Of a stretch of 64,000 nucleotides of DNA, positions 1,361-57,494 are shown piece by piece (position 1 is the stretch's first letter; each line of letters begins with the position of its first letter). The notes under the pieces are model-generated. The model was not told the DNA's origin. It ran no database searches and saw nothing but the letters and a program-made list of their open reading frames with translations. A program made the position numbers and the translations under genes. The stretch is from Eledone cirrhosa (lineage: Eukaryota): the NCBI GenBank assembly GCA_964016885.1, contig OZ024747.1:34534001-34598000 (forward strand). Reading direction: 5' to 3'.

Positions 1361-2062
1361 AAACTCAAGTTGGACAGTTAATTTTCCAAAGCGACCGCGC
1401 CAAAAATAGATTCAAAAATGACTAAGAATCGTGACGTGGCAGTGGTCAAGTTAGAAATAATGTGATTAGTTGCTTACGGCGGGTAGGCTGGTTGCTAGAG
1501 AGCGCAGCCCAATATCGCCCTAATATATATATACATATATATATATATATGTACGTATGTATATATATATATATCTTACTGCTTCCCCGTTCTCTCTGTT
1601 TCTCTCACCTTCTTTCGCCCCCTCTGTCAGTTACACTTTCTCTCGACTGACCTCTTCCTCGCACTTCCACTCACTCACTCTCTGTTTCTCCCCTTCTCAC
1701 TAGATCCCGTTTGGCTAGTAGTGGGGTCCTTTCTTGCTCACATCTCACTCACGTCGGACGGTCTGTGTCTTGACCGCTCATGAAATCCACCCAGCTTATG
1801 CTGACCGGATAACCATATTGCTTGTTTATTTTTCTATCTTCAGTTTGCTTCCTTCTATGTTGTTTACTTGTCTCACTCGCTTTACGCGATTTACGTGTCC
1901 CAATAGCTTTTTTTAGTTATTGCTCGCACCAACCTGAGGTATATGATTTTTAATGCGATGAAATATCAATGATGGTTGGCAAATCACTGACGAGGGACTA
2001 ATTTCATCATATCTAACGCATGTGCAACCACGCAGTATTCTTCTTTCTTCTGATGTTTTTTT

Positions 2063-2098
<36 letters not shown>

Positions 2099-2257
2099 AG
2101 GAGGTTATAGTTTACTTGAAGCATTGTGTAATGAGGTATAAACGTTTGAATATGTATAATAAAGCCAAAACAATGCAGGTATGGACATAGAAAAAGAATG
2201 CAATTGCAAAAGATATTGTTGACAATTCGTCTTTTACCTTAGACTTATTTTAAACGT

Positions 2258-2292
2258 CCTTAATTTTCGAGATAATATCTCTTCTTCAGAGG
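2258..2292 (-). ncRNA. Minimal hammerhead in PLE1 pLTR (other copies 6007-6041 +; mutated at ~2855-2889 and ~8420-8455)
   Basis: cct CTGAAGA A gagata-t-tatctc GAAA ATT A agg. Palindromic AATT stem III, typical of dimer-type PLE HHRs. Confidence 0.7.
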
Positions 2293-3023
2293 GAAATAAA
2301 GGTCTCAAACCAGCGTTCTAAATATCTTTCCAAGCCATGCTGACAGGAAATAGTATAGAGTATATGTTCTATCTCTAATGTCAAAGAGTTAAAATTAGGT
2401 GGATAAAGAGTAGTCTCCCTTTAAAAGGGGTTTGTTTAGGGTTTTTTTATTATTTTTTAATATACATGCCTGTTTAAGTGTGTGGGAGAATGCATGAAGG
2501 TGTAAGTATGTGAGTGTGTGTGTGTGAGTTTGAGAAGATAAGTCTATTCGTAAATGTGGGGGCTGGTGTTATCTGGTGTTAGAACTGGTTTTGTGTGTGT
2601 ATGTGTGAGAGAGAATAAGTGTAGGTGTAAGCGTGTGTGTGTGTGCGTGCGTGTGTGTGTATGGGGGGTGTAAATATGGGGCAAGAAGCCCTAAAGAAAA
2701 AAAACCCCTAAACAAACCCCTTTTAAAGGGAGACTACTCTTTATCCACCTAATTTTAACTCTTTGACATTATAGATAGAACAGATACTCTATACTATTTC
2801 CTGTCAGCATGACTTGGAAAGATATTTAGAACGCTGGTTTGAGACCTTTATTTCCCGCTAAAGAAGAGGTATTATCTCGAAAATTAAGGACGTTTAAAAT
2901 AAATCTAAGGTAAAAGACGAATTGTCAACAATATCTTTTGCAATTGCATTCTTTTTTCTATGTCCATACCTGCATTGTTTTGGCTTTATTATACATATTC
3001 AAACGTTTATACCTCATTACACA

Positions 3024-5606
3024 ATGCTTCAAGTGAACTATAACCTCCTCCTTTCCTTACGCCTGAGCCAGGCCCAGTTCACAACTGTAAAGAAACTCTT
3101 CCAGCTATCTGAAAAGCGCGCCAAAGCCGGCTGCCAAATAAACTTCCTAAAACGATGCCTGAATAACAACATCATCCTCAAAACTATCAAAAATGTGCAC
3201 CTACCAACATGCTTCAAATCACCAGGCCTCAAACGATCACTTAGTTACATACAAAAATTCTGCCTAAGAAAACTCATACAACACCTACACCGCACGCTAC
3301 AACATCACATACGGACTATTTCCAGCCTTGTACCACGACTCGCTAAAATCCCAGAACCTCTGTCCAGAGTCATCTCCGCCACTATAGACAGGTCATACCA
3401 CCATCGCCGAGACTACGAGAAAATACGTCTAACGCAAACATTTCTAAAACTCAGGACGGCCAAGTGTCTTAACAACATCCTAACTCTAAGCACCAACAGA
3501 GACGAACAAGACGGTACCAACACCGAACCTAGCAGTGCCCCGACCAACAACACACCTGACGCAAAACACCTCGTTACAGACTTGATAGGATCCCTCTCCC
3601 GAGAGGAATTAGACCTCCTCAGCCTGGGTCCCAAGTTCATATTGAAACAGAGACTGGACGACAAACTATGGCTCGACATAGAAACGAATTTCTGTCGGGC
3701 TGCCTACCAACTAAAACGGATATCGACTCTCGGCAACAACACCACGAGATCTATCAAACCCAGATTCCCGATATACCAACTTGAACGCCCACTCTGTCCA
3801 CCGCCTGCCAACCGCGAGCTTGAAGAAAAACTCTCGAGACTAAAACATTCCGTATTTAACATCTTACGGAAACAGAAGAAGATAGCCCCAAACCTCTCCA
3901 GGACACAACAACTCGCCCTGAAGAACCTACGGAATAGGGAACTTATATACTTACCATCCGACAAAGGTAAATAGTTTTGCGTCATCTCTCAAGCCACATA
4001 CAATAACCTAGCCTTTGATCACCTAAGCGACAATGAATTATACACAGAGATCCCGGACATGACTGCAGCCCAGATTGAAAAACAGACCAACTCCATTTGG
4101 TTCGATATCTGTAGGAGAAGACAACTCCCAAATAAAGCTAAGCTCAACTACACCACTAGAAATAGCAGACTGCCCACTTTCTACCACCTCATCAAGACCC
4201 ACAAGAATAGCACTAAGACGCAAATAAGACCCATCATCTCTAGCATAGAAGGACCCCTATACAAAATTTCCTGGCTCCTCTCCCAGGTCCTCAAGCCTCT
4301 ACTCTCCACCTTTCCCGGGCATGTCAGTAGCTCCGACGAAGTTATACGTAGACTACACCAACTCCAGCCAGAACAACTTAAACTAAATAAATACGCTTTT
4401 AGCCTCGACGTTGTCTCACTCTACACTACAGTCCCCGCTCATCCAGCTGTCGATTTATTGACGGACTGCGTGGTCGCAGAGAACATCCACTGCTACGGCT
4501 TCCACCCGACGGACATACACCAGCTTTTGTCCTTCACAGTAGACAACACGTACTTCACCTTCCACCACCACACATACAGACAGACAACAGGATTACCCAT
4601 GGGATCCAGCCTATCGGGCCTGCTGGCCATCACCTACATGAACCAGCTAGAATGCCGAGCCCTCAACACCTGCCATTCCCATGCCTTCTTCGCCCGATAT
4701 GTAGATGACATACTCATCCTCAAATCATCCCGTGAGGAGGCAGATAAAATATACACAACATTCTCCAGTATGGACGCCAGTATAAAGTTCAGCATGGAAC
4801 ACCCCGATGACCGCGGATCCCTATCCCTACTGGACTTCCAACTCAGGGTAACAGAGGAAGGCAACATCCACACCTGCTTCTATAAAAAAGCCGCAAGCAG
4901 GGACCTGTTCGTACATTTCAGATCGGCCCTCCTACTCGGTGCCAAGTTCGGATACATAAGGAACGAACTGGCACGTATCCGGAACAAATGCACCGACGCT
5001 AGAGACCGAGACACACACACCACACATTTCCTGGAAGTACTCAAACTGAACGGATACACGACATCCACCACAAACTGTGCCAGAAATAACAGAGGACACC
5101 ACACCCGAGGCACTAACACTTGCTTCCTGAAGCTCCCACACTTCAGTGAAGAAACAACAACAGCCATCCACAGAGCCATCAGACGAGAAGGACTAGATAT
5201 CCAACTGGCCCACTCAGGTCCTTCTCTGCGCGGACAGCTAGCCAAAAGACACTCCACCAGACATGACAACTGCTGCAGACTAGCCAACTGCCCCATCAAC
5301 GACACAGACCTATGCCACCAGGCTTACGTCGTATACAGACTAGAGTGTGACAAATGCAACAACTTCTACGTAGGTAGCACCACCAGACCACTCCACATGA
5401 GAATAAAAGAACACCTCAATACTAACGCTTCCTCATTTAAGAAACACCTAGTTAAATGCAAAAACACCGACAAAACCATAACAGTTAGGATAGAAACTAA
5501 GGAAAGAAACCTCGGCAATCTTAGAATTAAGGAAGCACTAATTATAGATAAAACACAACCACCTATCAATAATAGACTAGAAATCAACACCCAATTTATA
5601 ACTTGA
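3024..5606 (+). pseudogene. PLE reverse transcriptase + C-terminal GIY-YIG endonuclease, 860 codons with one in-frame TAG (3972-3974)
   Basis: ORFs 2922-3974 and 4059-5606 share a frame. Motifs LSLGPKF, SDKG, FYHLIKTHK, RPIISS, SLDVVSLYT, GLPMGSSLS, RYVDD, LLDF, VVYRLECDKC..YVGST..RIKEH. Confidence 0.93.
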
Positions 5607-6155
5607 TAGGGCTTCTAGCCCCATATTTACACAGCCCATACACACACACGCACGCACACACACACACGCTTACCTCCACTTATTCTCTCTCACACATACA
5701 CACACAAAACAAGTTCTAACACCAGATAACACCTATCCCCCACATTTACGAATAGACTTATCTTCTCACACTCACACACACACACTCACATACTTACACC
5801 TTCATGCATTCTCCCACTCACTTAAACAGGCAAGTATATAAAAAAACCAAAAAAAAAACCTAAACAAACCCCTTTTAAAGGGAGACTACTCTTTATCCAC
5901 CTAATTTTAACTCTTTGACATTAGAGATAGAACAGATACTCTATACTATTTCCTGTCAGCATGGCTTGGAAAGATATTTAGAACGCTGGTTTGAGACCTT
6001 TATTTCCCACTGAAGAAGAGATATTATCTCGAAAATTAAGGACGTTTAAAATAAATCTAAGGTAAAAGACGAATTGTCAACAATATCTTTTGCAATTGCA
6101 TTCTTTTTTCTATGTCCATACCTGCTTGTTTTGGCTTTATTATACATATTCAAAC

Positions 6156-6217
<62 letters not shown>

Positions 6218-7330: not shown

Positions 7331-7389
<59 letters not shown>

Positions 7390-7391
<2 letters not shown>

Positions 7392-8183
7392 GGAAAAAAT
7401 GAAACGAAATTTCATTTCTCACTCTTAGTACGGCTGTTACTTAAATATAAGTATGTATACGTACATACATATATGTATACAGACGTACAATAATATGTAT
7501 ATATATATACATACATGCACACATATATATATGTACGTATGGATTCACCGAACATTTATTATAATGCTCGGTGTGTTTGTAAACAAACATCCCGAATTAA
7601 GCCGTACAGTGTCTAGCAACCATCGTTGCTCATTTGTTCAACACTGACAAAGGAACGCTGTACTAGTTTCAAGCTTATTAGCTATCGTCAGCAACGTATA
7701 CCTTCCTGCCAGACGGTTGCACGTCTGAAAGTATAAACTTTCCTTATGCATATTAACGGCTGAGCAGCCTAATTTGCATATCGAGTGCGTTAATCGGCCG
7801 GGGTACCGAAAACGATAAACGGAAAAAATGAAACGAAATTTCATTTCTCACTCTTAGTACGTCTGTTACATAAATATATGTATGTATACGTACATACATA
7901 TATACGTACATATATATATGTGTTCATGTATGTATATATATATACATACTTCTGTACGTCTGTATACATATACAGCGTTCCTTTGTCAATGTTGAACAAA
8001 TGAACAACGATGGATGCTAGACACTGTACGGCTTAATTCGGGATGTTTGTTTACAAACACACCGAGCATTATAATAAATGTTCGGTGAATTCATACGTAC
8101 ATATATATATATATGCATTTATGTATATATATATATACATACTACTGTACGTCTGTATACATATATGTATGTACGTATACATA

Positions 8184-8188
<5 letters not shown>
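7390..8188 (-). mobile_element. Non-coding HHR-bearing element (retrozyme-like): 429-bp unit, partial second unit, inverted arm
   Basis: acggaaaaaatgaaacg... occurs at 7390 and 7819. 7973-8188 is the reverse complement of ~7446-7660. HHR at 7656-7696. (TA)n flanks and no coding capacity. Confidence 0.75.
7656..7696 (-). ncRNA. Minimal type I hammerhead ribozyme
   Basis: cgttg CTGACGA t-agct-aata-agct-t GAAAC TA GTA cagcg. 5-bp stem I, 4-bp stem II, palindromic stem III ACTAGT, GUA cleavage triplet. Confidence 0.85.
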
Positions 8189-8246
<58 letters not shown>

Positions 8247-8248
<2 letters not shown>

Positions 8249-8570
8249 AGGAAGTTATATTTCACCTGAAGCATTGTGTAATGAGGTATAAACGTTTGTA
8301 TATGTATAATAAAGCCAAAACAATGCAGGTATGGACATAGAATAAAGAATGCGATGCGAAGCATTTCATGTCAGCATGATTTGGCAAGCTATTTAGAACA
8401 CTGGTTTAACCGATTTACTTCCCTCCGAAGAAGAGATATTATCTCTAAAATTAAGGACATTTAAATAAATCTAAGGTAAAAGACAAATTGTCAACAATAT
8501 CTTTTGCATTTGCATTCTTTATTCTATGTCCATACCTGCATTGTTTTGGGTTTATTACACATATACAAAC

Positions 8571-8575
<5 letters not shown>
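8247..8575 (+). mobile_element. Miniature PLE1-family insertion (inverted arm + 3' pLTR piece)
   Basis: Both ends coincide with those of PLE1 (left ggagg.., right ..aaacgttta). Diverged sequence with a mutated HHR core. Confidence 0.85.
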
Positions 8576-8621
<46 letters not shown>

Positions 8622-8756: not shown

Positions 8757-9599
8757 TATATATATATGGTAGTGATAGTGGTTGTTGTAGCTGATAGTGA
8801 TTAGATATAAATAATGCTTTTATAAAATCAAAGCACAACACCAGTTAAAATGCACCTGAGAGCTGTACACAATAATTTTCATTATTATACTTACAGCTTA
8901 CTGGGTTTACTAACGAACCCAATTTTACGGCTATATGTTTATAAAGGATATATACTCACACATATAAATGTATGTATATGCACATACACACACACGCACA
9001 TTCAAACACATACCCCTCAACAATCCCACTGTTTCACTCTCTTTCTCTCTTTTTCTCTCTCTTCATATATATATAACGAAACTATATATATGTAGTTTCC
9101 TTGACCATTATACTAATGTGCACAGACACACAGATATATTGTCCTTGGTATGACAGTGTGGTTTTAGCTCAATATAGGATAACTAGTATACTACAGAGCC
9201 GTTATAAGTTACGGAATAACCAAAGAATGCTTAGAAATACATTGTTTTATTTGCTAACAGTGTTTCATCCATACCTAAGTGTAGGAATCATCAGAGCCTA
9301 TAAACAAAAGTATATCAAAGGTTGCAGGCTACATCGAGGGTATCACCACAACAAGGAAGAAGGACAAGTAGGGGGGCACCCAATACCTATAATGTCACAA
9401 AAATCATAAAAAATTACGTCAAATTGTTATCACATAAATGATGCAATAGATAATAAGGAAGTTGAGAGAGGAGAGCAAGACATGAATGAGGGTCTTACTC
9501 AGCATGATCAAAAAACGAACCAAGCTTAGATACATCAATTCACAAGCAGTGCAAGTACATGATTTACAGGCAGAGTATGAAAGCTTGTAAGCAACTATC

Positions 9600-13412: not shown

Positions 13413-13457
13413 GCTCTGATGATTCCTGCCCTAGGCTATGGATGAAACACTGTTAGC
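13413..13457 (+). ncRNA. Minimal hammerhead in PLE2 3' end (mirror copy 9253-9297, minus)
   Basis: gct CTGATGA t-tcc...gga-t GAAAC ACT GTT agc. Core conserved in both arms. Confidence 0.75.
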
Positions 13458-26353: not shown

Positions 26354-26538
26354 AAGACTTCTACAGGATCAGAACTGTTTCATTCGGGAGAAATCATCAG
26401 GAAGCCCTGATGATTTCTCCCGAACGAAAGAGTTCTATTCCTGTAGAAGCCTTTCTATATTAAATATTTATACTCTGCTTTGTATTGAGTACCTTACTTA
26501 CTGTGGTTACCCCCGTTTGAAGACGGGAAAATCTTATA
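26345..26538. mobile_element. Short fold-back PLE-type remnant (inverted repeat 26345-26462 + ~75-nt tail)
   Basis: Arms carry ctgatgatttc..gaa.gaaa.agttct. Related to 1-235. Sits in (TA)n. Confidence 0.65.
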
Positions 26539-30441: not shown

Positions 30442-31703
30442 TGCATTTATCTTGCTTTATGTTCATACAAGTTATCACCAAGTCACAACCAGTGACCTCA
30501 AGAGACAACAAGGTCCGCCATGTTCAAGAAAGAACATACGTACAAACACATGCATCTTTAGATGTTTAGACTTGTGATGTACTTATATTGACAGAATCTT
30601 CCTTAGCATATGGGCAGTTACCATTAGTACTATCTTTTGTATTTCTCCTGTACGCGGGTTTCCTGGGATTTGCGATAAGTAATCATTAGACCCCTTGGGT
30701 ATCATTCCTAGAGCGCCTACAACCACTGGTATTGTTTTAGTTCTCAATTTCCACATTTTTCCAAATTCTAGCTCCAGGTCCTTATATTGCTAAATTTTTA
30801 AAATGTTTTTATAGATACATTCTTGTCTATTGGAATGGACATATCAATTAGCACGCATACCCTCTTTTTAAAGTCCTTCAGTATTATATCAGGTCTATTT
30901 TCATCTATTTTTCGGCTTGTTTGGATGCTAAAGTTCCACAAGATTGAGATGTGATATGTTTCAAGTATGGGATGTGGTTGGTGCTCCCACCAATTCTTTT
31001 GATGGGGCAGGTCAAAATGCTTACACATTATCCAATGTATTTATTGTGCAGCTCTGTCATGCCTGTTTAGGTATTCGGTTGGAGCTATAGGACTGCACAT
31101 TGAAATTATATCATCAATGATCTCTGGTTGTTTTTTACATACAGGGCATAATGGGCTGCATCCATTTTTTATTATGTTGGCTTGGTAATTTTTTGTTGGC
31201 AGACACTGATCTTGAGCTGATATAATCAGTCCTTCAGTCGCCGATATCAGTCCAGAGGATGCCAACCACTGATGGGTCAAAGTTTTGTCAACATCAGGAT
31301 TGTTAGCTCTTTCTGGGTATTTTCCATACAGAGTCTGTTCTTGCCATTTGTTAGCCAGTTTCTGTAGCAGTTCTTTCTTTGCAGTTACTTTTACCTGCTT
31401 TGCTTTTTCTGTGTTTTCCATTTCAGCAGTAAATAGGACTTTTGACATTTGTAGTCCATTACTGTATCTTTGTGCAACTTTTCTAATGGAGTATGATCTT
31501 TTGATGCTTTCGTGTTTCAAGACGAGTTTGATCATCCAATCATGTGATTCCCTTAGATATGTAGATAATCTAATTGTTGCAGTTTTCAACGCAATATCTA
31601 ACTGGATTAACCCACGTCCTCCTTCTTTCCTAGGGAGATATATTCTATCTGTATCTGCCTTACGGCGATGCATTCTGTGCATGGTTAAACATTTTCTAAT
31701 TGT
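30442..31703 (-). mobile_element. 5'-truncated R4/Dong family A copy
   Basis: RIYLPRKEGGRGL, CPVCK..EIIDDIISMC, RHD, RPDIIL..IDMSIP. Matches ~44693-45950. Confidence 0.92.
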
Positions 31704-31713
31704 ATTATTAATG

Positions 31714-34700
31714 TTCTTTGAGTCTCAGTCATTGATGTTAGTTAACTGGAAAGTTTGATGAAATGAATATCAAGCCACTACCTGCAGCCTCAGATATTCA
31801 GGACGTATCGGAGGGTTCTTGCTGTTCCCAGCAAGCATGCCTTTTAAAGTGTTCCAAAAAGCTGGGCGGTGCCAATTTTCTTTAACCATCCCTGGAAACA
31901 TTTTGAGATAGTACCTAGTGCGCCTATGACAATCGGGACAACTTTGACTTCATGGCAGTTCCAAATCCTTTTTACCTCCCACTTTAAGTCCTGGTATCGG
32001 ATAATTTTCTCCCTCTCCTTCTACATCCACAATCAGGCACGATCTTTTTTTCCTTGTCCAAAACCACCAGGTCAGGTCTATTGTGTTCCAGTTTCTTGTC
32101 CGTCTGTATCCTAAAATCCCACAACACCTTCACCTGATCGTTTTCTATCACCGACTCTGGCTTATGCTCATACCACTTCTCAGAATGTGGTAAATTGTTT
32201 AGTTTGCATAGGTGCCAGTGGATCATCCTGCCCATCAGATCATGTCTCCAGCCTTTATAGTGAGTTTGGGCTAGGTGTTTACACTCGGATACAATGTGAG
32301 TCACATTCTCCTCTCTCTCACTCCACAGATCCTGTACAATGGGCTAGCCACTTCCTGTAAATATGGTGTTTCAGCCACTTCGTTTTTAGGGCCTGCTCTT
32401 GCGCAGCCATTAGCATTCCTTCTGTAGCCTTTTTAAGGTCTGCTCTTTTCAAGCAATTCCATGTCTGTGGATCTCTGAATTCAGTTTTCTCAAATAAGGT
32501 ACTATGAAGGGATTTTTCATGAAGGCTGCTCTTTCTCCTTGTTGTTATTTTCTCCTTGGACATCCCCTGGTCTATTGTCCTCTCCTTCAGTACAATTCTG
32601 AGCATTGGCTCCTTACTATCAGTCACATATTTGTGTAGGATGTTGTCATCCCCTGGTCTATTATCTTCTCCTTCAGTACAACTTTCAGCATTGCTCCCTA
32701 TTGTTTTTCCCCATCTGAACACAGTCCTCTATGCTGATAAGACCTCTTACACCTTCAGATCTGTTTAAGTGGAGTATATCGACATCACTCTTCTTGTGGA
32801 ACATGTTGTAGATAGTCAATAACTTCCTAGATTTCCTATCCATTTCATTTTGTTCAGCAACATTCCATCTCAGAATTCCCACAATGTATCTAATAATAGA
32901 CACAGCTCGGGAATTTACTGATGTCATCAGCTTCCAGAAAACACCGAAATACTTGTATCCTTCTTCAGTGTCAATTTCCTTTATCATTTCACCTGTTGGC
33001 ACCTGGATTCCGTTGTTTCTGCTCAAATTACCCCTATTCATCACAAGAACTCCACACTTACTGATACCAAATTGCATACATATATCATTGTTGAAAATAC
33101 GGACAGTGTCAACAAGCACATCCAACTCCTTCTCACTCTTCCCGAATAGCTTAAGATCGTCCATGAAGAGGAGATGATTGATGGTAAGCTCTCCCTTTCC
33201 CAACTTGTATCCTGCTCTCACTTTTCGAAGTATAATGGTCAGGGGCATCAGGGCAAGGACAAACAACAATGGGGACAGACTATCTCCCTGGAAGATACCT
33301 CTATTGATCTTCACGCATCCCAATGATTCTCCAGGTGATGTTAACTCTGTTTTCCAGGACTTCATACTTTTGCCCAACAACTGTCTGATGTTACTTGCCA
33401 CCTTGAAGATCTCTTGGCTTTTGGTGATCCAAGAATGAGGCACCATGTCAAATGCCTTTTTGTAGTCTATCCAGTGGCAAGACCAGTGTGTCTCCTCTTG
33501 CAATTCCTCATTACCATCTTATCAATAAGTAACTGGTCCTTTGTACCACGGGACTTCTTTCGGCATCCTTTCTGTTCGTCCGGTAACAAGTTGTTTGTGT
33601 GGAGGTGATGGAAGGTTTCCTCAGACATAATGCTTGTCAAGAGTTTACACATTACAGACAGACATGTGATAGGTCTATAGTTGGTAACATCATTACCCTT
33701 GATTCGGTCTTTCATTACCAGAACTATGGTACCTTTTGTCAACGACTCTGGTACCTCACCTGACATCAAGTAGTCATTGAACATGGCTGTCAGCTTCGGG
33801 TGGAGGGATGTTGTATTTTTAATCCAATACCCCTGCACACCATCTGGGCCTGGAGATTTCCATTTGGTTAGTTTTTTGGCCTGCCCCTTAAGAGTTTCAA
33901 CTGTGATACTCAAATCAGTTTGTTGGTGTGACTGTTCACTAATCTACTATTGTACTGTCTCAATCCACATTGCCTGGTCATTATGTTTAACATCCTGCTC
34001 CCATATTCCTCTCCAGATGTCTTAGTTTGTTCCGCCACAGGGATCAAGTCGTTGCCTTTTTCCCTTCAAGCTATCCAAACAGCATCTTCTGGTTGTTGTC
34101 AAACATGCGGTTCTGTCTATACTGACTGACTCTGCTCTCGTATCGCCTAATTTTTGCACTCTTTGCTACAATGCGTTGCTTCAGTTCCTCTATGATAATA
34201 TTTAGATTTTTCCTCCTAGTTTTGTACTTTATTTCCAGTCTATTTTTAATGTCTATGTTTTTAGTGTCCCATTCAGTAGGGACTCAAGCTTTCCAATGTC
34301 ATTTCTCATTTCCCTGATTTGACCATTCAGTCGTTTCTTCCACCAAGGTTCTGATCTTTCTTGTTTGTTGTTTCCTCTTGCTTTTATGCCAAGTAATTTC
34401 CTCACCGCATTTGCTGTTGCTTTGAGGATATTGTTGCACTGGTGAAGGCTCCTCGCCTGAAGGTATAGGATGAATTTGTTTACCTTAGCTGTTGTTTCTT
34501 TTAACTTTTTTCCTGTCTACATATCTTAGGTTCATAGGTTTCCCACTATCATTGTTCAATTCATATTCCACTAAGTTTAGGATATCAACCAAATCTTGTC
34601 CTAACCCGTCAGCATTCATCTCCTCAATGGCCGTATCTCTGTTCCATGTATTATTTATTTCAGCATTCAGATCATTGTCTGCTTCGGATGGTTCCTCCGT

Positions 34701-34853
34701 TCTCTCAACCTCTTCACCTCATTTCCCTCTGGCTCGTTTGCCTAGCATAATTCACTCTCCATTTCCAACCTAATCTCTCTGCTCAGTTCCTCCAGTTCAA
34801 GCTCTCTTATCCACCCATTAATTCTTATTACCCGATCCTGCCCGGCCAATTTT
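31714..34853 (-). mobile_element. Older degenerate R4/Dong family B copy (frameshifts, internal deletions)
   Basis: KSPGPDG, YRPITCL, IDYKKAFD, GIFQGDSLSPLLF, FMDD, RHD, RPD fragments. Homologous to 38302-41490. Confidence 0.92.
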
Positions 34854-34888
34854 TATTATTATTATTACTATTATTATTATTGTTGTTA

Positions 34889-36564
34889 TTCCTTGAATCT
34901 CAGTCATTGATGTTGGTTAACTGGAAAGTCCGTTGGAATGAATATCAAGCCACTACCTGCAGCCTCAGATATTCAGGACGTATCGGAGGGTTCTTGCTGT
35001 TCCCAGCAAGCATGTCATTTGAAGCGTTCCAAAAAGCGTGAAGGGGCCGATTTTCTTTAACCATCCCTGGAAACTTTTGGAGATAGTCCCCAGTGCGCCT
35101 ATGACAATCAGGATCACTTTGACTTCATGGCAGTTCCAAATCCTTTTCACCTCCCACTTTAGGTCCTGGTATCGGTTAATTTTCTCTCTCTCCTTCTCTT
35201 GCACTCTCGTGTTGAAAGGGCAGGCCACATCCATAATCAGACACGATCTTTTTTCTTTGTCCACAACCACCAGGTCAGGTCTATTGTGTTCCAGTTTTTT
35301 GTCCGTCTGTATCCTAAAATCCCACAGCACCTTCACCTGATTGTTCTCCATCACCGCCTCTGGCCTATGCTCATACCATTTCTCAGAATGTGGTAAATTG
35401 TTTACTTTGCACAGGTGCCAGTGGATCACCCTGCCCATCACATCGTGTCTCCAGCCCTTTATAGTGGGTCTGGGCTAGGTGTTTACACTCGGACACAATG
35501 TGAGCCACAGTCTCCTCTCTCTCTCCACAGATCCTGCACAGTGGGCTAGCCTCCTCCTTGTAAATATGGTGCTTTAACCACTTCGTTTTGAGGGCCTGCT
35601 CCTGCGCAGCCATTAGCATTCCTTCTGTAGCCTTTTTGAGGTCTCCTCTTCTCAACCAGTTCCATGTCTGTGGATCTCTAAATTCAGTTTTCTCAAAGAA
35701 GGTACTATGAAGGGATTTTCCCTTAAGGCTGCTCTTCCTCCTTGATGTTATTTCCTCCTTGGACATCCCCTGGCCTACTGTCCCCTCCTTCAGTACAGTT
35801 CTGAGCATTGGCTCCTTACTATAGGTCACGTATTTGTATAGGTTGTTTTTCTCCATCTGAACACAGTCCTCTCTGCTGATAAGACCTCTTCCACCCTCAG
35901 ATCTCCTTAGGTAGAGTCTATCGACATCACTCCTCTTGTGGAACATGTTGAAGATAGTCAATAGCTTCCTAGTCTTCCTATCCATTTCTTTGTGTTCAGC
36001 AACATTCCATCTCAGAATTCCCGCACTGTACCTAATAATAGACACAGCTCGGGTATTTACTGCGCTTATGGCATTTCTGCTGTTCAGATGTGACTTCAAT
36101 ACGCTCCTTACTCTCCGAATGTATTCAGTTCTTAACAAGTCCTTCATTTTTTTGTTCTTTATGCCATCAGCCTCCAGAAAGCCCAAATACTTGTATCCTT
36201 CCTCAGAGTCAATTTCCTTTATCATCTCACCAGTTGGTATCTGGATCCCGTTACTTCTGCTCAACCTACCCCTCCTCATCACAATGACTCCAGATTTACC
36301 AATACCAAACTGCATACATATATCACTGCTGAAAATACGGACAGTGTCAACAAGCACATCCAACTCCTTCTCACTTTTCCCGAAGAGCTTAAGATCGTCC
36401 ATGAAGAGGAGGTGATTGATGGTAAGCTGTCCCTTTCCCAACTTGTATCATGCTCTCACTTTTCGCAGCATAATGGTCAAGGGCATCAGGGCAAGGACAA
36501 ACAACAGAGGGGAGAGGCTATCTCCCTGCAAGATACCTCTCTTGATCTTCACGCTTCCCAAGGA
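34889..36564 (-). mobile_element. 5'-truncated Dong family B copy 1
   Basis: RT C-terminal half, CCHC and RLE. 1-nt frameshift near 35458. (TTA)n linkers. Confidence 0.95.
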
Positions 36565-36595
36565 ACTATTATTATTATTATTATTATTGTTGTTA

Positions 36596-38270
36596 TTCCT
36601 TGAATCTCAGTCATTGATGTTGGTTAACTGGAAAGTCCGTTGGATTGAATATCAAGCCACTACCTGCAGCCTCAGATATTCAGGACGTATCGGAGGGTTC
36701 TTGCTGTTCCAAGCAAGCATGCCTTTTGAAGCGTTCCAAAAAGCGTGAAGGGGCCGATTTTCTTTAACCATCCCTGGAAACTTTTGGAGATAGTCCCCAG
36801 TGCGCCTATGACAATCGGGATCACTTTGACATCATGGCAGTTCCAAATCCTTTTCACCTCCCACTTTAGGTCCTGGTATCGGTTAATTTTCTCCCTCTCC
36901 TTCTCTTGCACTCTCGTGTCGAACGGGCAGGCCACATCCACAATCAGACACGATCTTTTTTCTTTGTCCACAACCACCAGGTCAGGTCTATTGTGTTCCA
37001 GTTTTTTGTCCGTCTGTATCCTAAAATCCCACAGCACCTTCACCTGATTGTTCTCCATCACCGCCTCTGGCCTATGCTCATACCATTTCTCAGAATGTGG
37101 TAAATTGTTTACTTTGCACAGGTGCCAGTGGATCACCCTGCCCATCACATCGTGTCTCCAGCCCTTATAGTGGGTCTGGGCAAGGTGTTTACACTCGGAC
37201 ACAATGTGAGCCACAGTCTCCTCTCTCTCTCCACAGATCCTGCACAGTGGGCTAGCCTCCTCCTTGTAAATATGGTGCTTTAACCACTTCGTTTTGAGGG
37301 CCTGCTCCTGCGCAGCCATTAGCATTCCTTCTGTAGCCTTTTTGAGGTCTCCTCTTCTCAACCAGTTCCATGTCTGTGGATCTCTAAATTCAGTTTTCTC
37401 AAAGAAGGTACTATGAAGGGATTTTCCATTAAGGCTGCTCTTCCTCCTTGATGTTATTTCCTCCTTGGACATCCCCTGGCCTACTGTCCCCTCCTTCAGT
37501 ACAGTTCTGAGCATTGGCTCCTTACTATAGGTCACGTATTTGTATAGGTTGTTTTTCTCCATCTGAACACAGTCCTCTCTGCTGATAAGACCTCTTCCAC
37601 CCTCAGATCTCCTTAGGTAGAGTCTATCGACATCACTCCTCTTGTGGAACATGTTGAAGATAGTCAATAGCTTCCTAGTCTTCCTATCCATTTCTTTGTG
37701 TTCAGCAACATTCCATCTCAGAATTCCCGCACTGTACCTAATAATAGACACAGCTCGGGTATTTACTGCGCTTATGGCATTTCTGCTGTTCAGATGTGAC
37801 TTCAATACGCTCCTTACTCTCCGAATGTATTCAGTTCTTAACAAGTCCTTCATTTTTTTGTTCTTTATGCCATCAGCCTCCAGAAAGCCCAAATACTTGT
37901 ATCCTTCCTCAGAGTCAATTTCCTTTATCATCTCACCAGTTGGTATCTGGATCCCGTTACTTCTGCTCAACCTACCCCTCCTCATCACAATGACTCCAGA
38001 TTTACCAATACCAAACTGCATACATATATCACTGCTGAAAATACGGACAGTGTCAACAAGCACATCCAACTCCTTCTCACTTTTCCCGAAGAGCTTAAGA
38101 TCGTCCATGAAGAGGAGGTGATTGATGGTAAGCTGTCCCTTTCCCAACTTGTATCCTGCTCTCACTTTTCGCAGCATAATGGTCAAGGGCATCAGGGCAA
38201 GGACAAACAACAGAGGGGAGAGGCTATCTCCCTGCAAGATACCTCTCTTGATCTTCACGCTTCCCAAGGA
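36596..38270 (-). mobile_element. 5'-truncated Dong family B copy 2 (recombinant of copies 3 and 1)
   Basis: Open frame 36672-38267. Same truncation point and linker as copy 1. Diagnostic SNPs switch between ~37181 and 37268. Confidence 0.93.
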
Positions 38271-38301
38271 ACTATTATTATTATTATTATTATTGTTGTT
38301 A

Positions 38302-41300
38302 TTCCTTGAATCTCAGTCATTGATGTTGGTTAACTGGAAAGTCCGTTGGATTGAATATCAAGCCACTACCTGCAGCCTCAGATATTCAGGACGTATCGGA
38401 GGGTTCTTGCTGTTCCAAGCAAGCATGCCTTTTGAAGCGTTCCAAAAAGCGTGAAGGGGCCGATTTTCTTTAACCATCCCTGGAAACTTTTGGAGATAGT
38501 CCCCAGTGCGCCTATGACAATCGGGATCACTTTGACATCATGGCAGTTCCAAATCCTTTTCACCTCCCACTTTAGGTCCTGGTATCGGTTAATTTTCTCC
38601 CTCTCCTTCTCTTGCACTCTCGTGTCGAACGGGCAGGCCACATCCACAATCAGACACGATCTTTTTTCTTTGTCCACAACCACCAGGTCAGGTCTATTGT
38701 GTTCCAGTTTTTTGTCCGTCTGTATCCTAAAATCCCACAGCACCTTCACCTGATTGTTCTCCATCACCGCCTCTGGCCTATGCTCATACCATTTCTCAGA
38801 ATGTGGTAAATTGTTTACTTTGCACAGGTGCCAGTGGATCACCCTGCCCATCACATCGTGTCTCCAGCCCTTATAGTGGGTCTGGGCAAGGTGTTTACAC
38901 TCGGACACAATGTGAGCCACAGTCTCCTCTCTCTCTCCACAGATCCTGCACAGTGGGCTAGCCTCCTCCTTGTAGATATGGTGCTTCAACCACTTCGTTT
39001 TGAGGGCCTGCTCCTGTGCAGCCATTAGCATTCCTTCTGTAGCCTTTTTGAGGTCTCCTCTTCTCAACCAGTTCCATGTCTGTGGATCTCTAAATTCAGT
39101 TTTCTCAAAGAAGGTACTATGAAGGGATTTTCCCTTAAGGCTGCTCTTCCTCCTTGATGTTATTTCCTCCTTGGACATCCCCTGGCCTACTGTCCCCTCC
39201 TTCAGTACATTTCTGAGCATTGGCTCCTTACTATAGCTCACGTATTTGTATAGGTTGTTTTTCTCCATCTGAACACAGTCCTCTATGCTGATAAGACCTC
39301 TTCCACCCTCAGATCTCCTTAGGTAGAGTCTATCGACATCACTCCTCTTGTGGAACATGTTGTAGATAATCAATAGCTTCCTAGTCTTCCTATCCATTTC
39401 TTTTTGTTCAGCAACATTCCATCTCAGAATTCCCGCACTGTACCTAATAATAGACACAGCTCGGGAATTTACTGCGCTTATGGCATTTCTGCTGTTCAGA
39501 TGTGACTTCAATACGCTCCTTACTCTCCGAATGTATTCAGTTCTTAACAATTCCTTCATTTTTTTGTTCTTTATGCCATCAGCCTCCAGAACGCCCAAAT
39601 ACTTGTATCCTTCCTCAGAGTCAATTTCCTTTATCATTTCACCTGTTGGTATCTGGATCCCGTTACTTCTGCTCAACTTACCCCTCCTCATCACAATGAC
39701 TCCACATTTACCAATACCAAACTGCATACATATATCATTGCTGAAAATACGGACAGTGTCAACAAGCACATCCAACTCCTTCTCACTTTTCCCGAAGAGC
39801 TTAAGATCGTCCATGAAGAGGAGGTGATTGATGGTAAGCTCTCCCCTTCCCAACTTGTATCCTGCTCTTACTTTTCGCAGCATAATGGTCAAGGCCATCA
39901 GGGCAAGGACAAACAACAGAGGGGACCGGCTATCTCCCTGGAAGATACCTCTCTTCATCTTCACGCTTACCAAGGATGCTCCAGTTGATGTCAACTCTGT
40001 CTCCCAGGACCCCATACTCCTGCCAAGCAACTGTCTGATGTTGTCTGCCACCCTGAAGATCTCCAGGCTTTTGGTGATCCAAGAATGAGGCACCATGTCA
40101 AATGCCTTTCTGTAGTCTATCCATCCCATGGCAAGATCAGTGTGTCTCCTCCTGCAATTCCCCATTACCATCTTATCAATAAGTAACTGGTCCTTTGTAC
40201 CACGTGACTTCTTTCGGCATCCTTTCTCTTCGTCCGGTAACAAGTTGTTTGTGTGGAGGTGATGGTAGATTTCCTCAGACACAATGCTCGTCAACAGTTT
40301 CCACATTACGGACAGACATGTGATAGGTCTATAGTTGGTAACATCATTACCCTTGATTCGGTCTTTCATTATCAGAACTGTGGTACCTTTTGTCAACCAC
40401 TCTGGCACCTCACCCGACACCAAGCAGTCATTGAACATGGCTGTCAGCTTCGGGTGGAGGGATGTTACACCATCTGGGCCTGGTGATTTCCAGTTGGTTA
40501 GTTTTTTGGCCTGCCCCTTAAGAGTTTCAACTGTGATACTCAAATCAGTTTGTTGATGTGCCTGCTCACCGATCTCCCTCTGTACTCTCTCAATCCACCC
40601 TGCCTGGACATTATGTCTAACATCCTGCTCCCATATTCCTCTCCAGAATGTTTTAGTTTGCTCCGCCCCAGGGATCAAGTCGTTGCCTCTTTCTTTCCCC
40701 TCAAGCTGTCCAAACAGCATCTTCTGGTTGTTGTCGAACATGCGGTTCTGTTTATACTGACTGACTCTGTTCTCGTATCGCCTGATTTTTGCACTCTTTG
40801 CTACAATGCGTTGCTTCAGTTCCTCTATGATAATATTTAGCTTTTTCCTCCTAGTTATGTATTTTATTTCCAGTCTATTTTTAGTGCCTATGTTTTTTAG
40901 TGTCCCATTCAGTAGTGACTCAAGCTTTCCTATGTCATTTCTCATTTCCCCGATTTGCCCACTCAGTCGCTTCTTCCACCACGGCTCTGCTCTTTCTTGT
41001 CTGTTGTTTCCTCTCGCTTTTATACCAAGTAGTTTCCTCGCCGTATTTGCTGTTGCTTTGAGGATATTGTTGCACTGGTGAAGGCTCCTCGCCTCAAGGT
41101 ATGGGATGACTTTGTTTACTTTAGCTGTTGTTTCTTTTAACTTTTTCCTGTCTACAAACCTTAGGTTCATAGGTCTCCCACTATCATTGTTCAATTCATC
41201 TACCACTAAATTTAGGATGTCAACCGAATCTTGTCCTAGCCCGTCAGCATTCATCTCCTCAGTGGCCGTATCTCTGTTCCAGGTATTATTTATCTCAGTA

Positions 41301-42833
41301 TTCAGATCATTGTCTGCTTCGGGTGGTTCCTCCGTTCTCAGGACCTCTTCACCTTCATTTCCCACTGGCTCGCTTGTCTGGCATACTACACCCGCCATCT
41401 CCAAGCCATTCTCTCTGCTCAGTTCCTCCAGTTCCAGCTCGCTTAGCCACCCATTAGTTCTTATTACCCGAGCCTGCCCGGCCAATTTTTGTTCATCTAA
41501 TTTAAATAAACCAATCTCGTTCCAGATGTTATGCATCCGTCTCCTGTAGCCCCCCTCCTTGGGGTTACTTTTCAGGTAACATTGCATAACAGTTCTATTC
41601 AATTCTTTCGTCCAGTTGGTTCTGGCCCCTTTCCTTCTTCTCCTTCCTCCAACATCAGCAGTATTTGGTTGACAGTCAGGTTCCTGCTGCTGAGCCAGGG
41701 GGCACCTGTTGGGTGAGAGTCTGTCACATGACGTTCTAGTCTCCATTTCACCGTTATTCGAACTGTTTATGTTCGATATTTAAACACTCTTATCGAGGAT
41801 TGGCGAATGTATGGTTACATAGCCATCTGTGGATCCGCCATTCCACTTGGCCCTTGTGTGGCATTATTACCACGCTGTATACGAACACACATAAACAAAC
41901 AAACACACAGGCAGAAAGGGCCTCAAAAATGAATAAGCATAAGTTTCATTGTAATGTAGTGTTCGAATGTCTGACTTAGTTTTTGTTTTTTTAAGTTTTA
42001 GTTTCTCCCCCCTCTTCTCTGTCCGTCCGCCTGCTTCTCTCTTCATTCTTATTTTCTTTACGTTTTGGGTTTTTTTTTTTTTTGTTTTTGTTTTTCTCTG
42101 TTTGTTTTTCTCGTTTTTTGCTGTTGTTGCTGTGCTGCTTTGGTTTTGTTGTTTGTTTTTTCTTTTTTCTTTTTTCTCTTGAGTCTATCTATATATTTTG
42201 ATGCCTTCCTCTTTTTTAGCAGTAGGGATTCTATAATGTGGTGGCAGCAGCCAGCTTGTAGAGGTGGGAGACTGGCGGCGGTAGCGATACTGAGACAGTG
42301 GTGGTGGTGATGTCGATACCGAGGCAGTGGTAGCGGTGATGTGACCGTATTACTGTAGTGATGGTGCTGTAGCGGTGGTAGCAGTGGAGGAGTGAAGGGG
42401 TGATGGCGGCGGTGATGGGATAATGGTGGTAATGATGGCCGTAGTGAGCGGTGGTGGTGAAAATGCCGTTATCTGGCTGTTGTGTTTAGTGGACACATGT
42501 GATGGGGTGGGTGGTGTATCTAGTTTCTGGTGTTGGTGAGTTTGGCTGTTCTATATAGTGTAGACAGAGGAGAGGAGAGGGGGGGGGGGTTCCTCTTCCA
42601 TTTATAGCCATTTTCCTTTTTGGATATACAGTGTACAATACAAAGTTGAATATTTGAATATTTGAGCCTTATAACAATATATTTTGGGTCCGAATTTTTG
42701 GGGGCTCAAGCCGGGTGCTTTACGTAGCATTTGTACTAAGAGTTGTTATTTCACAAATGATTTAAATATGTTAAAAATTCAAAACTTACGGGAGCGATTT
42801 CATGACCTCCGTCACCTCGTGCGTCTTCTTCCC
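38302..42833 (-). mobile_element. Apparently full-length Dong family B element (copy 3) with ~1.1-kb CCA-rich 5' UTR
   Basis: Single long ORF bounded by ATT repeats on both sides. 5' boundary inferred from resumption of the microsatellite at 42834. Confidence 0.85.
38378..41746 (-). CDS. R4/Dong-clade non-LTR retrotransposon protein (RT + CCHC knuckle + restriction-like endonuclease), 1122 aa
   Basis: WT.E.N..VMQCY N-terminal motif, KSPGPDG, YRPITCL, IDYRKAFD, QGDS.SPLLF, FMDD, YKYLG, CRIC..ETVAH..C, RHD, RPD..D..K. Carries an ~8-aa deletion after GPDGV and QGDSRSP, so possibly inactive. Confidence 0.93.
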   Translation of the reverse strand: METRTSCDRLSPNRCPLAQQQEPDCQPNTADVGGRRRRKGARTNWTKELNRTVMQCYLKSNPKEGGYRRRMHNIWNEIGLFKLDEQKLAGQARVIRTNGWLSELELEELSRENGLEMAGVVCQTSEPVGNEGEEVLRTEEPPEADNDLNTEINNTWNRDTATEEMNADGLGQDSVDILNLVVDELNNDSGRPMNLRFVDRKKLKETTAKVNKVIPYLEARSLHQCNNILKATANTARKLLGIKARGNNRQERAEPWWKKRLSGQIGEMRNDIGKLESLLNGTLKNIGTKNRLEIKYITRRKKLNIIIEELKQRIVAKSAKIRRYENRVSQYKQNRMFDNNQKMLFGQLEGKERGNDLIPGAEQTKTFWRGIWEQDVRHNVQAGWIERVQREIGEQAHQQTDLSITVETLKGQAKKLTNWKSPGPDGVTSLHPKLTAMFNDCLVSGEVPEWLTKGTTVLIMKDRIKGNDVTNYRPITCLSVMWKLLTSIVSEEIYHHLHTNNLLPDEEKGCRKKSRGTKDQLLIDKMVMGNCRRRHTDLAMGWIDYRKAFDMVPHSWITKSLEIFRVADNIRQLLGRSMGSWETELTSTGASLVSVKMKRGIFQGDSRSPLLFVLALMALTIMLRKVRAGYKLGRGELTINHLLFMDDLKLFGKSEKELDVLVDTVRIFSNDICMQFGIGKCGVIVMRRGKLSRSNGIQIPTGEMIKEIDSEEGYKYLGVLEADGIKNKKMKELLRTEYIRRVRSVLKSHLNSRNAISAVNSRAVSIIRYSAGILRWNVAEQKEMDRKTRKLLIIYNMFHKRSDVDRLYLRRSEGGRGLISIEDCVQMEKNNLYKYVSYSKEPMLRNVLKEGTVGQGMSKEEITSRRKSSLKGKSLHSTFFEKTEFRDPQTWNWLRRGDLKKATEGMLMAAQEQALKTKWLKHHIYKEEASPLCRICGEREETVAHIVSECKHLAQTHYKGWRHDVMGRVIHWHLCKVNNLPHSEKWYEHRPEAVMENNQVKVLWDFRIQTDKKLEHNRPDLVVVDKEKRSCLIVDVACPFDTRVQEKEREKINRYQDLKWEVKRIWNCHDVKVIPIVIGALGTISKSFQGWLKKIGPFTLFGTLQKACLLGTARTLRYVLNI

Positions 42834-42908
42834 ATTATTCTTCTTCTTATTATTATTATTAGGTCTGAACGGACGTCTTTTTTATTATTATTATTATTAT
42901 TGTTGTTA

Positions 42909-44692
<1,784 letters not shown>

Positions 44693-47600
44693 TGCATTTA
44701 TCTTGCTTTATGTTTATACGAGTTATCACCAAGTCACAACCAGTGACCTCAAGAGACAACAAGGTCCGCCATGTTCAAGAAAGAACACACATATTCACAC
44801 ATGCATCCTTAGTGTTTAGACTTGTGATGTACTTATATTGACAGGATCTTCCTTAGTATATGGGCAGTTCCCATTAGTACTATCTTTTGTATTTCTCCTA
44901 TACGCGGGTTTCCTGGGATTTGCGATAAGTAGTCGTTAGACCCCTTAGGTATCATTCCCAGAGCGCCTACAACCACTGGTATTGTTTTAGTTCTCAATTT
45001 CCACATTTTTCCAATTTCTATCTCCAGGTCCTTATACTTGCTCAATTTTTCAAATGTTTTTATAGATACATTCTTGTCTATTGGAACAGACATATCAATT
45101 AGCAGGCATACCCTCCTTTGAAAGTCCTTCAATATTATATCAGGTCTATTTGCATCTATTTTTCGGTCTGTTTGGATGCTAAAGTTCCACAAGATTGAGA
45201 TGTGATATGTTTCAAGTATGGGAGGTGGTTGATGCTCCCAGCAATTCTTTTGATGGGGCAGGTCAAAATGCTTACACATTATCCAATGTATGTATTGTGC
45301 AGCTCTGCCATGCCTGTTTAGGTATTCGGTTGGAGCTATGGGACTGCACATTGAAATTATATGGTCAATGGTCTCTGGTTGTTTTTTGCATACACGGCAT
45401 AGTGGGCTGCACCCATTTTTTATTATGTTGGCTTGGTAATTTTTTGTTGGCAGACACTGATCTTGTGCGGATATAATCAGTCCTTCAGTCTCCGATTTCA
45501 GTCCAGAGGATGCCAACCACTGATGGGTTAAAGTTTTGTCAACATCAGGATTGTTAGCTCGCTCTGGGTATTTTCCATACAGAGGCTTTTCTTGCCATTT
45601 CTTAGCCAGTTTCTGTAGCAGTTCTTTCTTTGCAGTTACTTTTACCTGCTTTGCTTTTTCTGTGTTTTCCATTTCAGCAGTAAATGGGACTTCTGAAATT
45701 TGTAGTCCATTACTGTATCTTTGTGCATCTTTTGTAATGGAATATGATCTTTTGGTGCTTTCGTGTTTCAAAACGAGTTTGATCATCCAATCATGTGATT
45801 CCCTTAGATATGTGGATAATCCAATTGTTGCAGTTTTCAACGCAATGTCTAACTGGATTAACCCACGTCCTCCTTCTTTCCTAGGGAGATATATTCTATC
45901 TATGTCTGCCTTAGGGTGATGCATTCTGTGCATGGTTAAGAATTTTCGGATTTTTGTATCGAGCCTACGGATCTCTGTGCTTGACCAGTTGATGACATTG
46001 TAACTGTAGGTTACTACTGGTATGGCAAGCGTGTTTATGGCATCGATCCTATTCCTTGCATTCAATTCCGTTCTTAAGATTGCTCTGACTCTGCGGTAAC
46101 ATTCCTTCCTTATCCTTTCCCTCATTGTCGAGTGCTTGATTCCGTCTCCTTCACAAACACCTAGATATTTGTAAGTTTGTTCTTGATCAAGCTCTCTTAT
46201 CACGTTCCCCCGATCAAGATTAATGTCTGAACTCTTCAGCAGCTTTCCTCTGGTGAACGTTGCTTTGGCGCATTTATCCAGTCCAAACTCCATTTTAATG
46301 TCATCACTGAACTGCTTCACAGTGGATAATAGCCCTTGCAATTGTTCATCATTTTTTGCAAATAGTTTCAGGTCATCCATGTAGAACAGGTGATTAATGG
46401 TTTTGTCATAGACTCTATATCCATGTTTTGTTTCATTGAGCATTTTACTTAATGGTATAAGTGCGATGCAGAATAAAAGCGGTGATAAAGAGTCACCCTG
46501 AAAAATTCCACAATTAATGTTAACTTCTCCAGCTTCCAGTGATTTTGTTTCACTATTCAAAAGGAGTGTCGTTCTCCATGTCCTCATACTGAATGACAAA
46601 AACCTCCTGACAACGGGGGATATTTTGAAAATCTCTAAACATTTTTCAATCCAACTGTGTGGCAAACTATCAAATGCTTTTTTATAATCTATCCAAGCAA
46701 TCGATAGATTTTTGTGTCTATTATGACAATCTTCCAGTATCATTTTGTTAACCAGAAGCTGATCCTTACAGCCATATGAGCCTCGTTTACACCCTTTCTG
46801 CTCAATGGGAAATAGGTCATTTGTTATCAGGTGGTCATATGTGTATTCAGTTAGGACTGATGTTAAAATTTTATACATTGTGGTCAAGCAGGTTATCGGT
46901 CTGTAATTTTTGGGATTGTTTGTCTCATCATTCTTCGGTAGCAGGAATGTAATGCCGTTGACTAGCCATGATGGTATTTTTTCTGGCTCCTTAACTATTT
47001 CATTGTAAAGTTGGGCTAACAGCTCATGAGACTCTGTGAAGGCATTTATCCAAAAGTTTTGTATTTTGTCTTTTCCTGGGGATTTCCATTTGCTGGTTTT
47101 TCTTAGAGCCAAGCGCAGCTGTTCAACTGTTATATTTTCCCATGTTTGTTCTTCAAGGTGAGCTGTTTCTTTCATTTGTCTGTCTATCCATGGGGCATGT
47201 ATGTTATGAACTTTTTCTTCGGCCCAGATCTTTTCCCAGAATTCTTGCACTTCCTCCTTGGGTGGTATTGATTTAGCAGTTATTGTTGACTTACCAATTT
47301 TTCTGTAGAAGTTTCTTTGGTTGTTTTTGAAAATATTATTATCCTTATAGAATCTAGATCGTTTTTCAAAGCGCCTTATACGAGCAGCTTTGGCCGACAC
47401 TTTTTGCTTGATTGTTTCTATCAGCATGTCTATGTCACATGTTGATCTTATACTGTACTTTTTTTTCAATTTTCTAAGTTTAGTTTGTTTAACATGTTCA
47501 CCTACTTTATAGTTTGTTAAAATTTCTATGTCAGATCGGAGAAGGTTTATTTGGCGATTGATGTTATCTTGCCAAGTAGATTTCTTGTGGGAATTCCTTT

Positions 47601-57181: not shown

Positions 57182-57494
57182 TGTTATACTTTGGGAGGGT
57201 CATGTTGCCAATAAGAAACACATGCACCAGATGCTTCACTCCAATTTATTATAAATTAAATTTATAAATTTAAGAATTTATAAATTTCTGGTTGGTTAGC
57301 TGGTTCCATAACGGTTGTTCATATATTATCAAAGTTCTTTCGTCACACATTCTGTGATCTCTTCAGTGACTGGGGATTCTTCTCTTTGTTTTGTGCCTCT
57401 CCTTTGTTCTGTCCTACGCCATCTTGTTTTCCTGTGTCACAGCATCTAGTGCGTGTGTTTCTTATTGGCAACATGAATCTCCCAAAGTATAACA
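57182..57494. mobile_element. 313-bp MITE-like element with ~48-bp TIRs ending TGT...ACA (Ginger-like termini)
   Basis: tgttatactttgggagggtcatgttgccaataagaaacacatgcaccaga / tctagtgcgtgtgtttcttattggcaacatgaatctcccaaagtataaca. Flanks atat / gtat. Confidence 0.75.

Follow-up and report, generated by a model that had tools for sequence, protein, structure and literature searches.

Metazoan non-LTR retrozymes are described as short head-to-tail repeats of 150 to 450 bp that occur in many copies, as dimers to multimers, and whose target-site duplication, when present, is longer than 4 bp (PMC7229834). Absence of LTRs, PBS and PPT, self-cleaving transcripts and expression as linear and circular monomers also belong to this description. 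Mobilisation of retrozymes by PLEs was proposed in the same work, and circular templates for PLE tandems were proposed in PMC4209133. A preprint (Li, Clavereau, Pollet, bioRxiv 10.64898/2026.07.22.740005) treats animal retrozymes as non-autonomous PLE derivatives and reports in vitro cleavage for one of nine tested dimers. The prior case for how animal retrozymes move has thus been a hypothesis based on shared ribozymes, co-occurrence and pLTR phylogeny. For the PLEs themselves, in vitro work describes a protein, predicted to be a dimer, that cuts and extends both target strands and starts reverse transcription at two internal RNA sites, which define the tail; hammerhead (HHR) mutants inserted normally in these assays, making cleavage dispensable (PMC11167929). 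PLE insertions in genomes carry the tail on one arm, include inverted copies and show a bias toward microsatellites (PMC8557442, PMC3846280), and self-priming on an antisense template has been raised as the origin of head-to-head arms (PMC3846280).

The window analyzed here is a stretch of 64,000 nt from Eledone cirrhosa (GCA_964016885.1, contig OZ024747.1, positions 34,534,001 to 34,598,000), in which the insert, counted with its flanking (TA)n runs, occupies 7334-8246. A full 429-bp non-coding unit of what we term family A lies on the minus strand at 7390-7818, where the original prediction had placed it, and a direct repeat at a spacing of 429 is present in the insert. Unit positions are numbered q1 to q429 from 7818 down to 7390, and q429 is the long 3' end. 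The segment between this and a second, short 3' end forms a tail with a terminal hairpin (7390-7441, minus strand, q378-429), found in this arm only; the unequal arms and tail of about 55 nt that had been proposed were recovered, with the tail at 52 to 55 nt. It is followed by a TA-rich imperfect palindrome (7442-7540, minus strand, q279-377) that varies in length from copy to copy and has the short 3' end at its distal edge. Head-to-tail with the full unit is a 5'-truncated upstream partial unit (7819-7949, minus strand), 86% identical to q305-429, which had been noticed earlier but extends to about 7949 rather than to 7910. About 21 nt of filler (7950-7970, no strand assigned) mark the junction between the arms and resemble the unit's own TA-rich hairpin, as judged from a plus-strand match of 7902-7972 to q279-349. 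The inverted arm runs on the plus strand from 7971/7973 to about 8190 (q157/159-377), in agreement with the 7973-8188 first given; it is 94.6% identical to q157-377, ends at the short 3' end and does not include the ribozyme core.

The insert sits in (TA)n, as had been stated. One target run, assigned from the sequence, adjoins the long 3' end at 7334-7389 (to 7390), and the other lies beside the short 3' end at 8186-8246, where the boundary to the arm is ambiguous; neither has a strand. Next to the right-hand run, at 8247-8577, is a palindromic stump belonging to the family of a PLE located at 2062-6214. The unit has a GC content of 37%, and its longest stop-free frame is 72 aa, in keeping with the lack of coding capacity noted at the outset.

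A type I hammerhead motif, the predicted ribozyme, was located at 7644-7710 on the minus strand using the sequence, pair counts and folding. Its core spans 7656-7696, and the predicted cut falls between 7661 and 7660. Helix II has 4 bp, helix III consists of 2 bp that close a 6-nt palindrome, and helix I is long and interrupted. The original prediction of an intact minimal HHR was right about the core and its position, but the 2-bp helix III means that the motif is not of the minimal type. Core positions are 96-100% conserved in 82-92 aligned pieces, a sample picked in part by the same motif. Across the 21 modelled pairs, 99.6% of 246 cells hold standard pairs in an alignment of eight family A copies and four copies of a sister family, B, and two double changes at paired positions distinguish the families, each representing one evolutionary event. 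Rfam returned no match in the window at gathering score, and the 113 matches at E<=10 include no hammerhead family, so the ribozyme assignment is based on the core motif, the helices and the covariation. Rfam miRNA matches at E<=10 were dismissed, as they fall on the TA palindrome with scores well short of the gathering cut-offs. In folding predictions helix III has a probability of 0.0 in the monomer, which suggests that a dimer is probably required for activity; the helix III palindrome pairs with itself at -4.8 kcal/mol. Hammerhead-core matches in the window number 13 against 4.05 expected. Further core motifs at 343-451, 9263-9294 with 13416-13447, 26378-26429 and 57338-57366, several of them in inverted pairs, belong to other PLE-type insertions.

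Genome-wide, a 31-nt motif spanning the cut site of family A has 6,060 exact occurrences in 3.0 Gb. The many copies with a 429-bp period anticipated for the element are therefore present, and a one-off local duplication at 7819 can be ruled out. Family B, first considered as a divergent variant and possible partner, has 8,621 exact motif copies, is about 77% identical to family A and has a period of 460-500 bp (for example L133:1652-2117 on the minus strand, L218 and L220, where L numbers denote fetched loci). Its insertions have long multi-unit arms on both sides, with downstream hairpins of the same shape as in family A and a different sequence. The arms of family B differ at 8 of 2,434 sites (approximately 0.3%), with near-zero divergence in many loci, and the family is very young.

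Family A arrays (L211, L212, L213-L215) reach 40 or more units, and the largest one has more than 45 over approximately 20 kb. These long arrays are period-2 and period-4 higher-order repeats; in L211 and L212 alternate units are identical while neighboring units differ at 8-13 of approximately 298 sites. Such arrays grew at the DNA level, so their use as evidence for rolling-circle reverse transcription was rejected. The same loci present a case of satellite birth from a retrozyme insertion. Other tandem structures were encountered as well. At L405-L406 (C4, ~58.99 Mb), a 3.7-3.9-kb segment that carries a rearranged B copy and no PLE ORF is present three times in tandem. A third ORF-less tandem family with a 310-bp period (L059:1-500, L130, L131, L082, L426) has the same ribozyme architecture in an unrelated sequence, with (TA)n targets and two 3' ends separated by about 33 nt. 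A short inverted-arm element (L015, minus strand, ~2500-3200; L016) contains a hammerhead motif with a different 6-nt helix III palindrome.

The 66 position-ordered family A loci have 100 3' ends, of which 46 are located at q420-429, 43 at q370-382 and 11 elsewhere, and 74 of the 89 classified ends lead into a TA run. The concentration of 89 ends at two positions supports the internal priming at fixed sites proposed at the start. It had also been proposed that copying continues past the ribozyme into another unit; 46 of 99 arms in these loci are longer than one unit, in a sample picked by the cut-site-spanning motif and hence favoring long arms. Among 34 partner arms that had not been picked for the ribozyme, 16 cross the cut site and 9 enter a second unit. 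Head-to-head pairs were found 125 times in 242 loci. Both ends could be classified in 96 pairs, an unclassifiable end being present in the other 29, and 92 of the 96 join a long end to a short one, compared with two long-long and two short-short pairs (p=9e-23). The same long and short combination occurs in 15 of 17 family B pairs. The 5' ends are scattered round the whole unit and also inside upstream units. The (TA)n flanks mask any target-site duplication, and no LTR layout was seen in the loci examined.

Variable 5' truncation, partial tandems, head-to-head inverted arms and microsatellite (TA)n targets thus accompany two 3' ends spaced 52-55 nt apart, and the PLE-type integration originally suggested is borne out. 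The insertion ends themselves carry a PLE signature, and their near-strict long and short pairing fits the two start sites found in vitro. We consider PLE-type mobilization well supported; given this signature and the published biochemistry (PMC11167929), the mobilizing agent would most likely be a PLE protein. An RT and GIY-YIG element in the window (2062-6214; Pfam RVT_1 and GIY-YIG) likewise has a pair of ends at (TA)n, with a separation of about 45 nt; 18 motifs from these ends in 30 loci comprise 7 short, 6 long and 5 that were not automatically classified. The ORF of this copy is broken by a stop near 3972, a hammerhead motif lies at 6010-6034, and the copy has an inverted arm and a 45-nt tail. 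Its family yielded 20,187 first-look candidates.

We examined whether arms end at the ribozyme cut site, since the original prediction had the short arm stopping at the 5' end of a self-cleaved linear monomer and expected the ends of arms to accumulate at the GUA site. The search pattern combined an anchor with three required mismatches just upstream and so counts rearrangements at a chosen place. Genome-wide, 62 junction-like matches were obtained at the cut site (q157-159, 17-nt anchor), compared with 111 and 53 at the control sites q134-136 (17 nt) and q189-191 (20 nt), and no pile-up was evident. Fetched loci truly started at the respective position in 19 of 30, 13 of 15 and 6 of 15 cases, giving scaled counts of approximately 39, 96 and 21, so that the cut site falls within the range of the two controls. 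Only one of the 34 partner arms not picked for holding the ribozyme ends at q155-161, which leaves the proposed stop at a monomer end unsupported. A mixed model, in which self-cleaved linear monomers serve as a regular template and arms stop at the cut site, does account for the window arm, which starts at q157-159, and for the approximately 39 such ends in the genome; given the control counts, the single partner arm ending there and the 6,060 exact copies that span the cut site, we regard it as very improbable. The start beside the cut site is real at the window locus and is not a trait of the family; it is best read as chance. As a general rule the cut-site stop is contradicted, and such stops may at most make a minor contribution.

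It was also asked whether the unit belongs to a larger autonomous element. Of the 465 loci examined, 390 carry a family A or B piece (overlapping loci counted). An endonuclease match is also present in 36 of these, in four cases on the same strand and within 600 nt upstream, and those four look like nested insertions with no common junction. No RT/GIY-YIG ORF is joined to the unit at a common junction in any of the 390 loci, consistent with the expected absence of an adjoining PLE ORF. Searches of the loci with the PLE proteins of the window did not find a partner. Copies that diverge just past the ribozyme showed no recurrent new sequence among the 100 listed of 272 matches, and the same was true of 55 matches diverging after q38-54. 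Comparison of the unit with three pLTR regions in the window gave no significant match. It also has no match, outside the TA-rich part, to the flanks of family D, an abundant autonomous family, and neither D nor a second abundant autonomous family, P, shows homology to the unit outside TA-rich sequence.

These results bear on an alternative reading, in which the unit is the pLTR of an autonomous PLE and each copy is a stump of it, truncated at the 5' end; the tandems would then have formed through successive insertions of the element into its own TA-rich part, or through duplication at the DNA level. PLE stumps do look alike (PMC8557442), DNA-level expansion does occur in family A, and the 465 loci are a sample of many thousands. 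In the examined loci, however, q1 is preceded either by another unit, joined at its q429, or by an inverted arm, and the spread of 5' ends round the whole unit, the lack of recurrent sequence past the divergence points and the four apparently nested endonuclease loci all argue against a parent element. We consider this reading improbable, and continue to regard the unit as an ORF-less element that is likely mobilized in trans.

Several other retroelements were observed in the course of these searches. A very abundant young PLE family, represented at 61621-63063 (minus strand) and in L151-L180 and L419-L435, gave 64,437 first-look candidates, of which 150 were scored at 97-100%. It has open frames of up to ~830 aa and a 3-4-kb AT-rich, internally repeated 3' region; up to 5 kb past the stop, no canonical hammerhead of its own was found. 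Judged by their motifs, the PLE fragments of the window would be Poseidon-like and Neptune-like. At 31000-48500 (minus strand) is a cluster of tandem non-LTR retrotransposon ORFs (to 1,133 and 1,216 aa) with (TTA)n runs between them, which by their motif presumably encode a C-terminal restriction-like endonuclease.

The form of the RNA template was approached through rare sequence variants. These are shared by adjacent units in 14 of 224 cases and by the two arms of a locus in 16 of 216, compared with 45 of 11,334 random pairs and 3 of 142 comparisons with the nearest other loci. Since sharing within a locus exceeds the random level, each insertion appears to have had one source, which may be either a circle or a fairly homogeneous array. 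One account of the same PLE-driven element makes the main template a monomeric circular RNA, produced by dimeric hammerhead cleavage and host ligation, with the reverse transcriptase rolling round the circle from both start sites. In line with it, many young B insertions carry identical variants throughout both arms, in each unit, which a homogeneous array would also explain; those of 3-9 units are near-uniform, and locus-specific variants or lengths are common to both arms. Arms are often longer than one unit and show no stop at the cut site, which is what a circle would predict; compensatory changes accompany the conservation of the ribozyme; and the unit folds far better than its shuffles (z=-8.5, partly due to the TA palindrome). 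Retrozymes of coral, mussel and axolotl are reported to accumulate as circles (PMC7229834).

A monomeric circle cannot, barring later gene conversion, give rise to two arms with the same succession of non-identical units, and such cases were found. Variants common to the arms and absent from neighboring units occur in L083, L221, L268, L058 (at common sites) and L382/L383. In L382/L383 (family B) the same variant and length are present in the second unit of both arms only, L382 having been found by a search for its own variant. In L218 (family B) an ordered pair of unit types is common to both arms, not in 3' register. Of the six family A loci that could be tested, three are compatible with a monomeric circle and three are not. 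Sharing in register (26/260) exceeds that out of register (7/170; p=0.026) in an unmatched comparison, and a locus- and site-matched test gave 11 versus 6, a non-significant difference (p=0.33). The cases in register could also be imitated by gene conversion between the two arms. The long family A arrays, being higher-order repeats formed in DNA, lend the circle no support, and the normal insertion of HHR mutants in vitro also speaks against it (PMC11167929). Taken together, we judge a monomeric circle as main template to be rather unlikely, and the sequences weakly favor an uncleaved multimer as the usual template. Two further candidate markers were discarded. The helix II variant of L218, considered as a marker of a master multimer, has 39 matches, mostly single units at unrelated loci, which indicates recurrent mutation. 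Haplotype switches between q105 and q187, considered as ligation-junction recombinants, are explained equally well by stepwise intermediates.

The explanation we favor, and hold with moderate confidence, is that of a high-copy, ORF-less hammerhead tandem repeat that is likely mobilized in trans by a PLE RT/GIY-YIG protein, likely from RNA that is longer than one unit and probably uncleaved. In the proposed mechanism, tandem copies would be transcribed as read-through multimers, and a PLE protein, probably as a dimer, would bind the conserved 3' hairpin region and nick both strands of a (TA)n run. Two cDNAs would then be primed from two internal RNA start sites 52-55 nt apart, each would extend over a variable distance, and the pair would be joined in head-to-head orientation. 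Ribozyme cleavage would require a dimer and proceed slowly, leaving most templates to be copied intact, and long arrays would later expand at the DNA level. A more specific version, put forward tentatively, has a dimeric PLE protein copying the young family B, with both target strands primed from two fixed positions of a single RNA and an obligatory circle disfavored. If it is correct, B insertions record their template unit by unit, and one genome could settle the choice between circle and multimer.

By comparison with described elements, families A and B resemble metazoan non-LTR retrozymes in their short, low-GC, ORF-less tandem units present in thousands of copies, in having in each unit a type I hammerhead whose helix III is short and palindromic and, as in mussel, in the occurrence of two related families (PMC7229834). 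Their units (429 and ~460-500 bp) are at or above the upper size quoted there; their insertion ends are mapped here, with two fixed 3' ends and inverted arms, which goes beyond what the cited sections of that work describe. The hammerhead of family A shares with those of PLEs an unpaired base at the 5' end of helix II. The min-HHR of metazoan PLEs, as outlined in PMC4209133, has no helix III or loop 3 and an enlarged helix II, in contrast to the 2-bp helix III, palindromic loop and 4-bp helix II of family A, which is closer to the short-helix-III type of that paper.

Because the sequence characters of retrozymes and PLE-type ends are present and an ORF of its own is absent, family A is classified, on sequence grounds, as a metazoan non-LTR retrozyme, a non-autonomous PLE-type element that appears not to have been reported before: a search of mostly open-access literature returned no report of family A or of a count of long and short pairing. 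Its insertions are like those of EN+ PLEs in 5' truncation, partial tandems, an inverted copy, a tail on one arm, microsatellite targets and two internal RT starts (PMC8557442, PMC3846280, PMC11167929). They differ in lacking an RT or GIY-YIG ORF and in a tail of 52-55 nt where 30-40 bp is usual, which counts against the model. ORF-less PLE passengers with multicopy head-to-tail insertions have a precedent in MRC1 of Chlamys (PMC8557442).

The element class and its link to PLEs are already in print; what is gained is evidence and a test system, as the family allows the old idea of circular templates for PLE tandems to be tested in practice. The closest account also reads HHR tandem repeats as non-autonomous PLE derivatives (bioRxiv 10.64898/2026.07.22.740005). 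That reading draws on co-occurrence together with pLTR phylogeny, for the most part in vertebrates, and suggests that a pLTR was amplified locally. For the families described here, by contrast, no parent pLTR was found in the loci examined, and the signature of the insertions shows that tandems are deposited at scattered positions.
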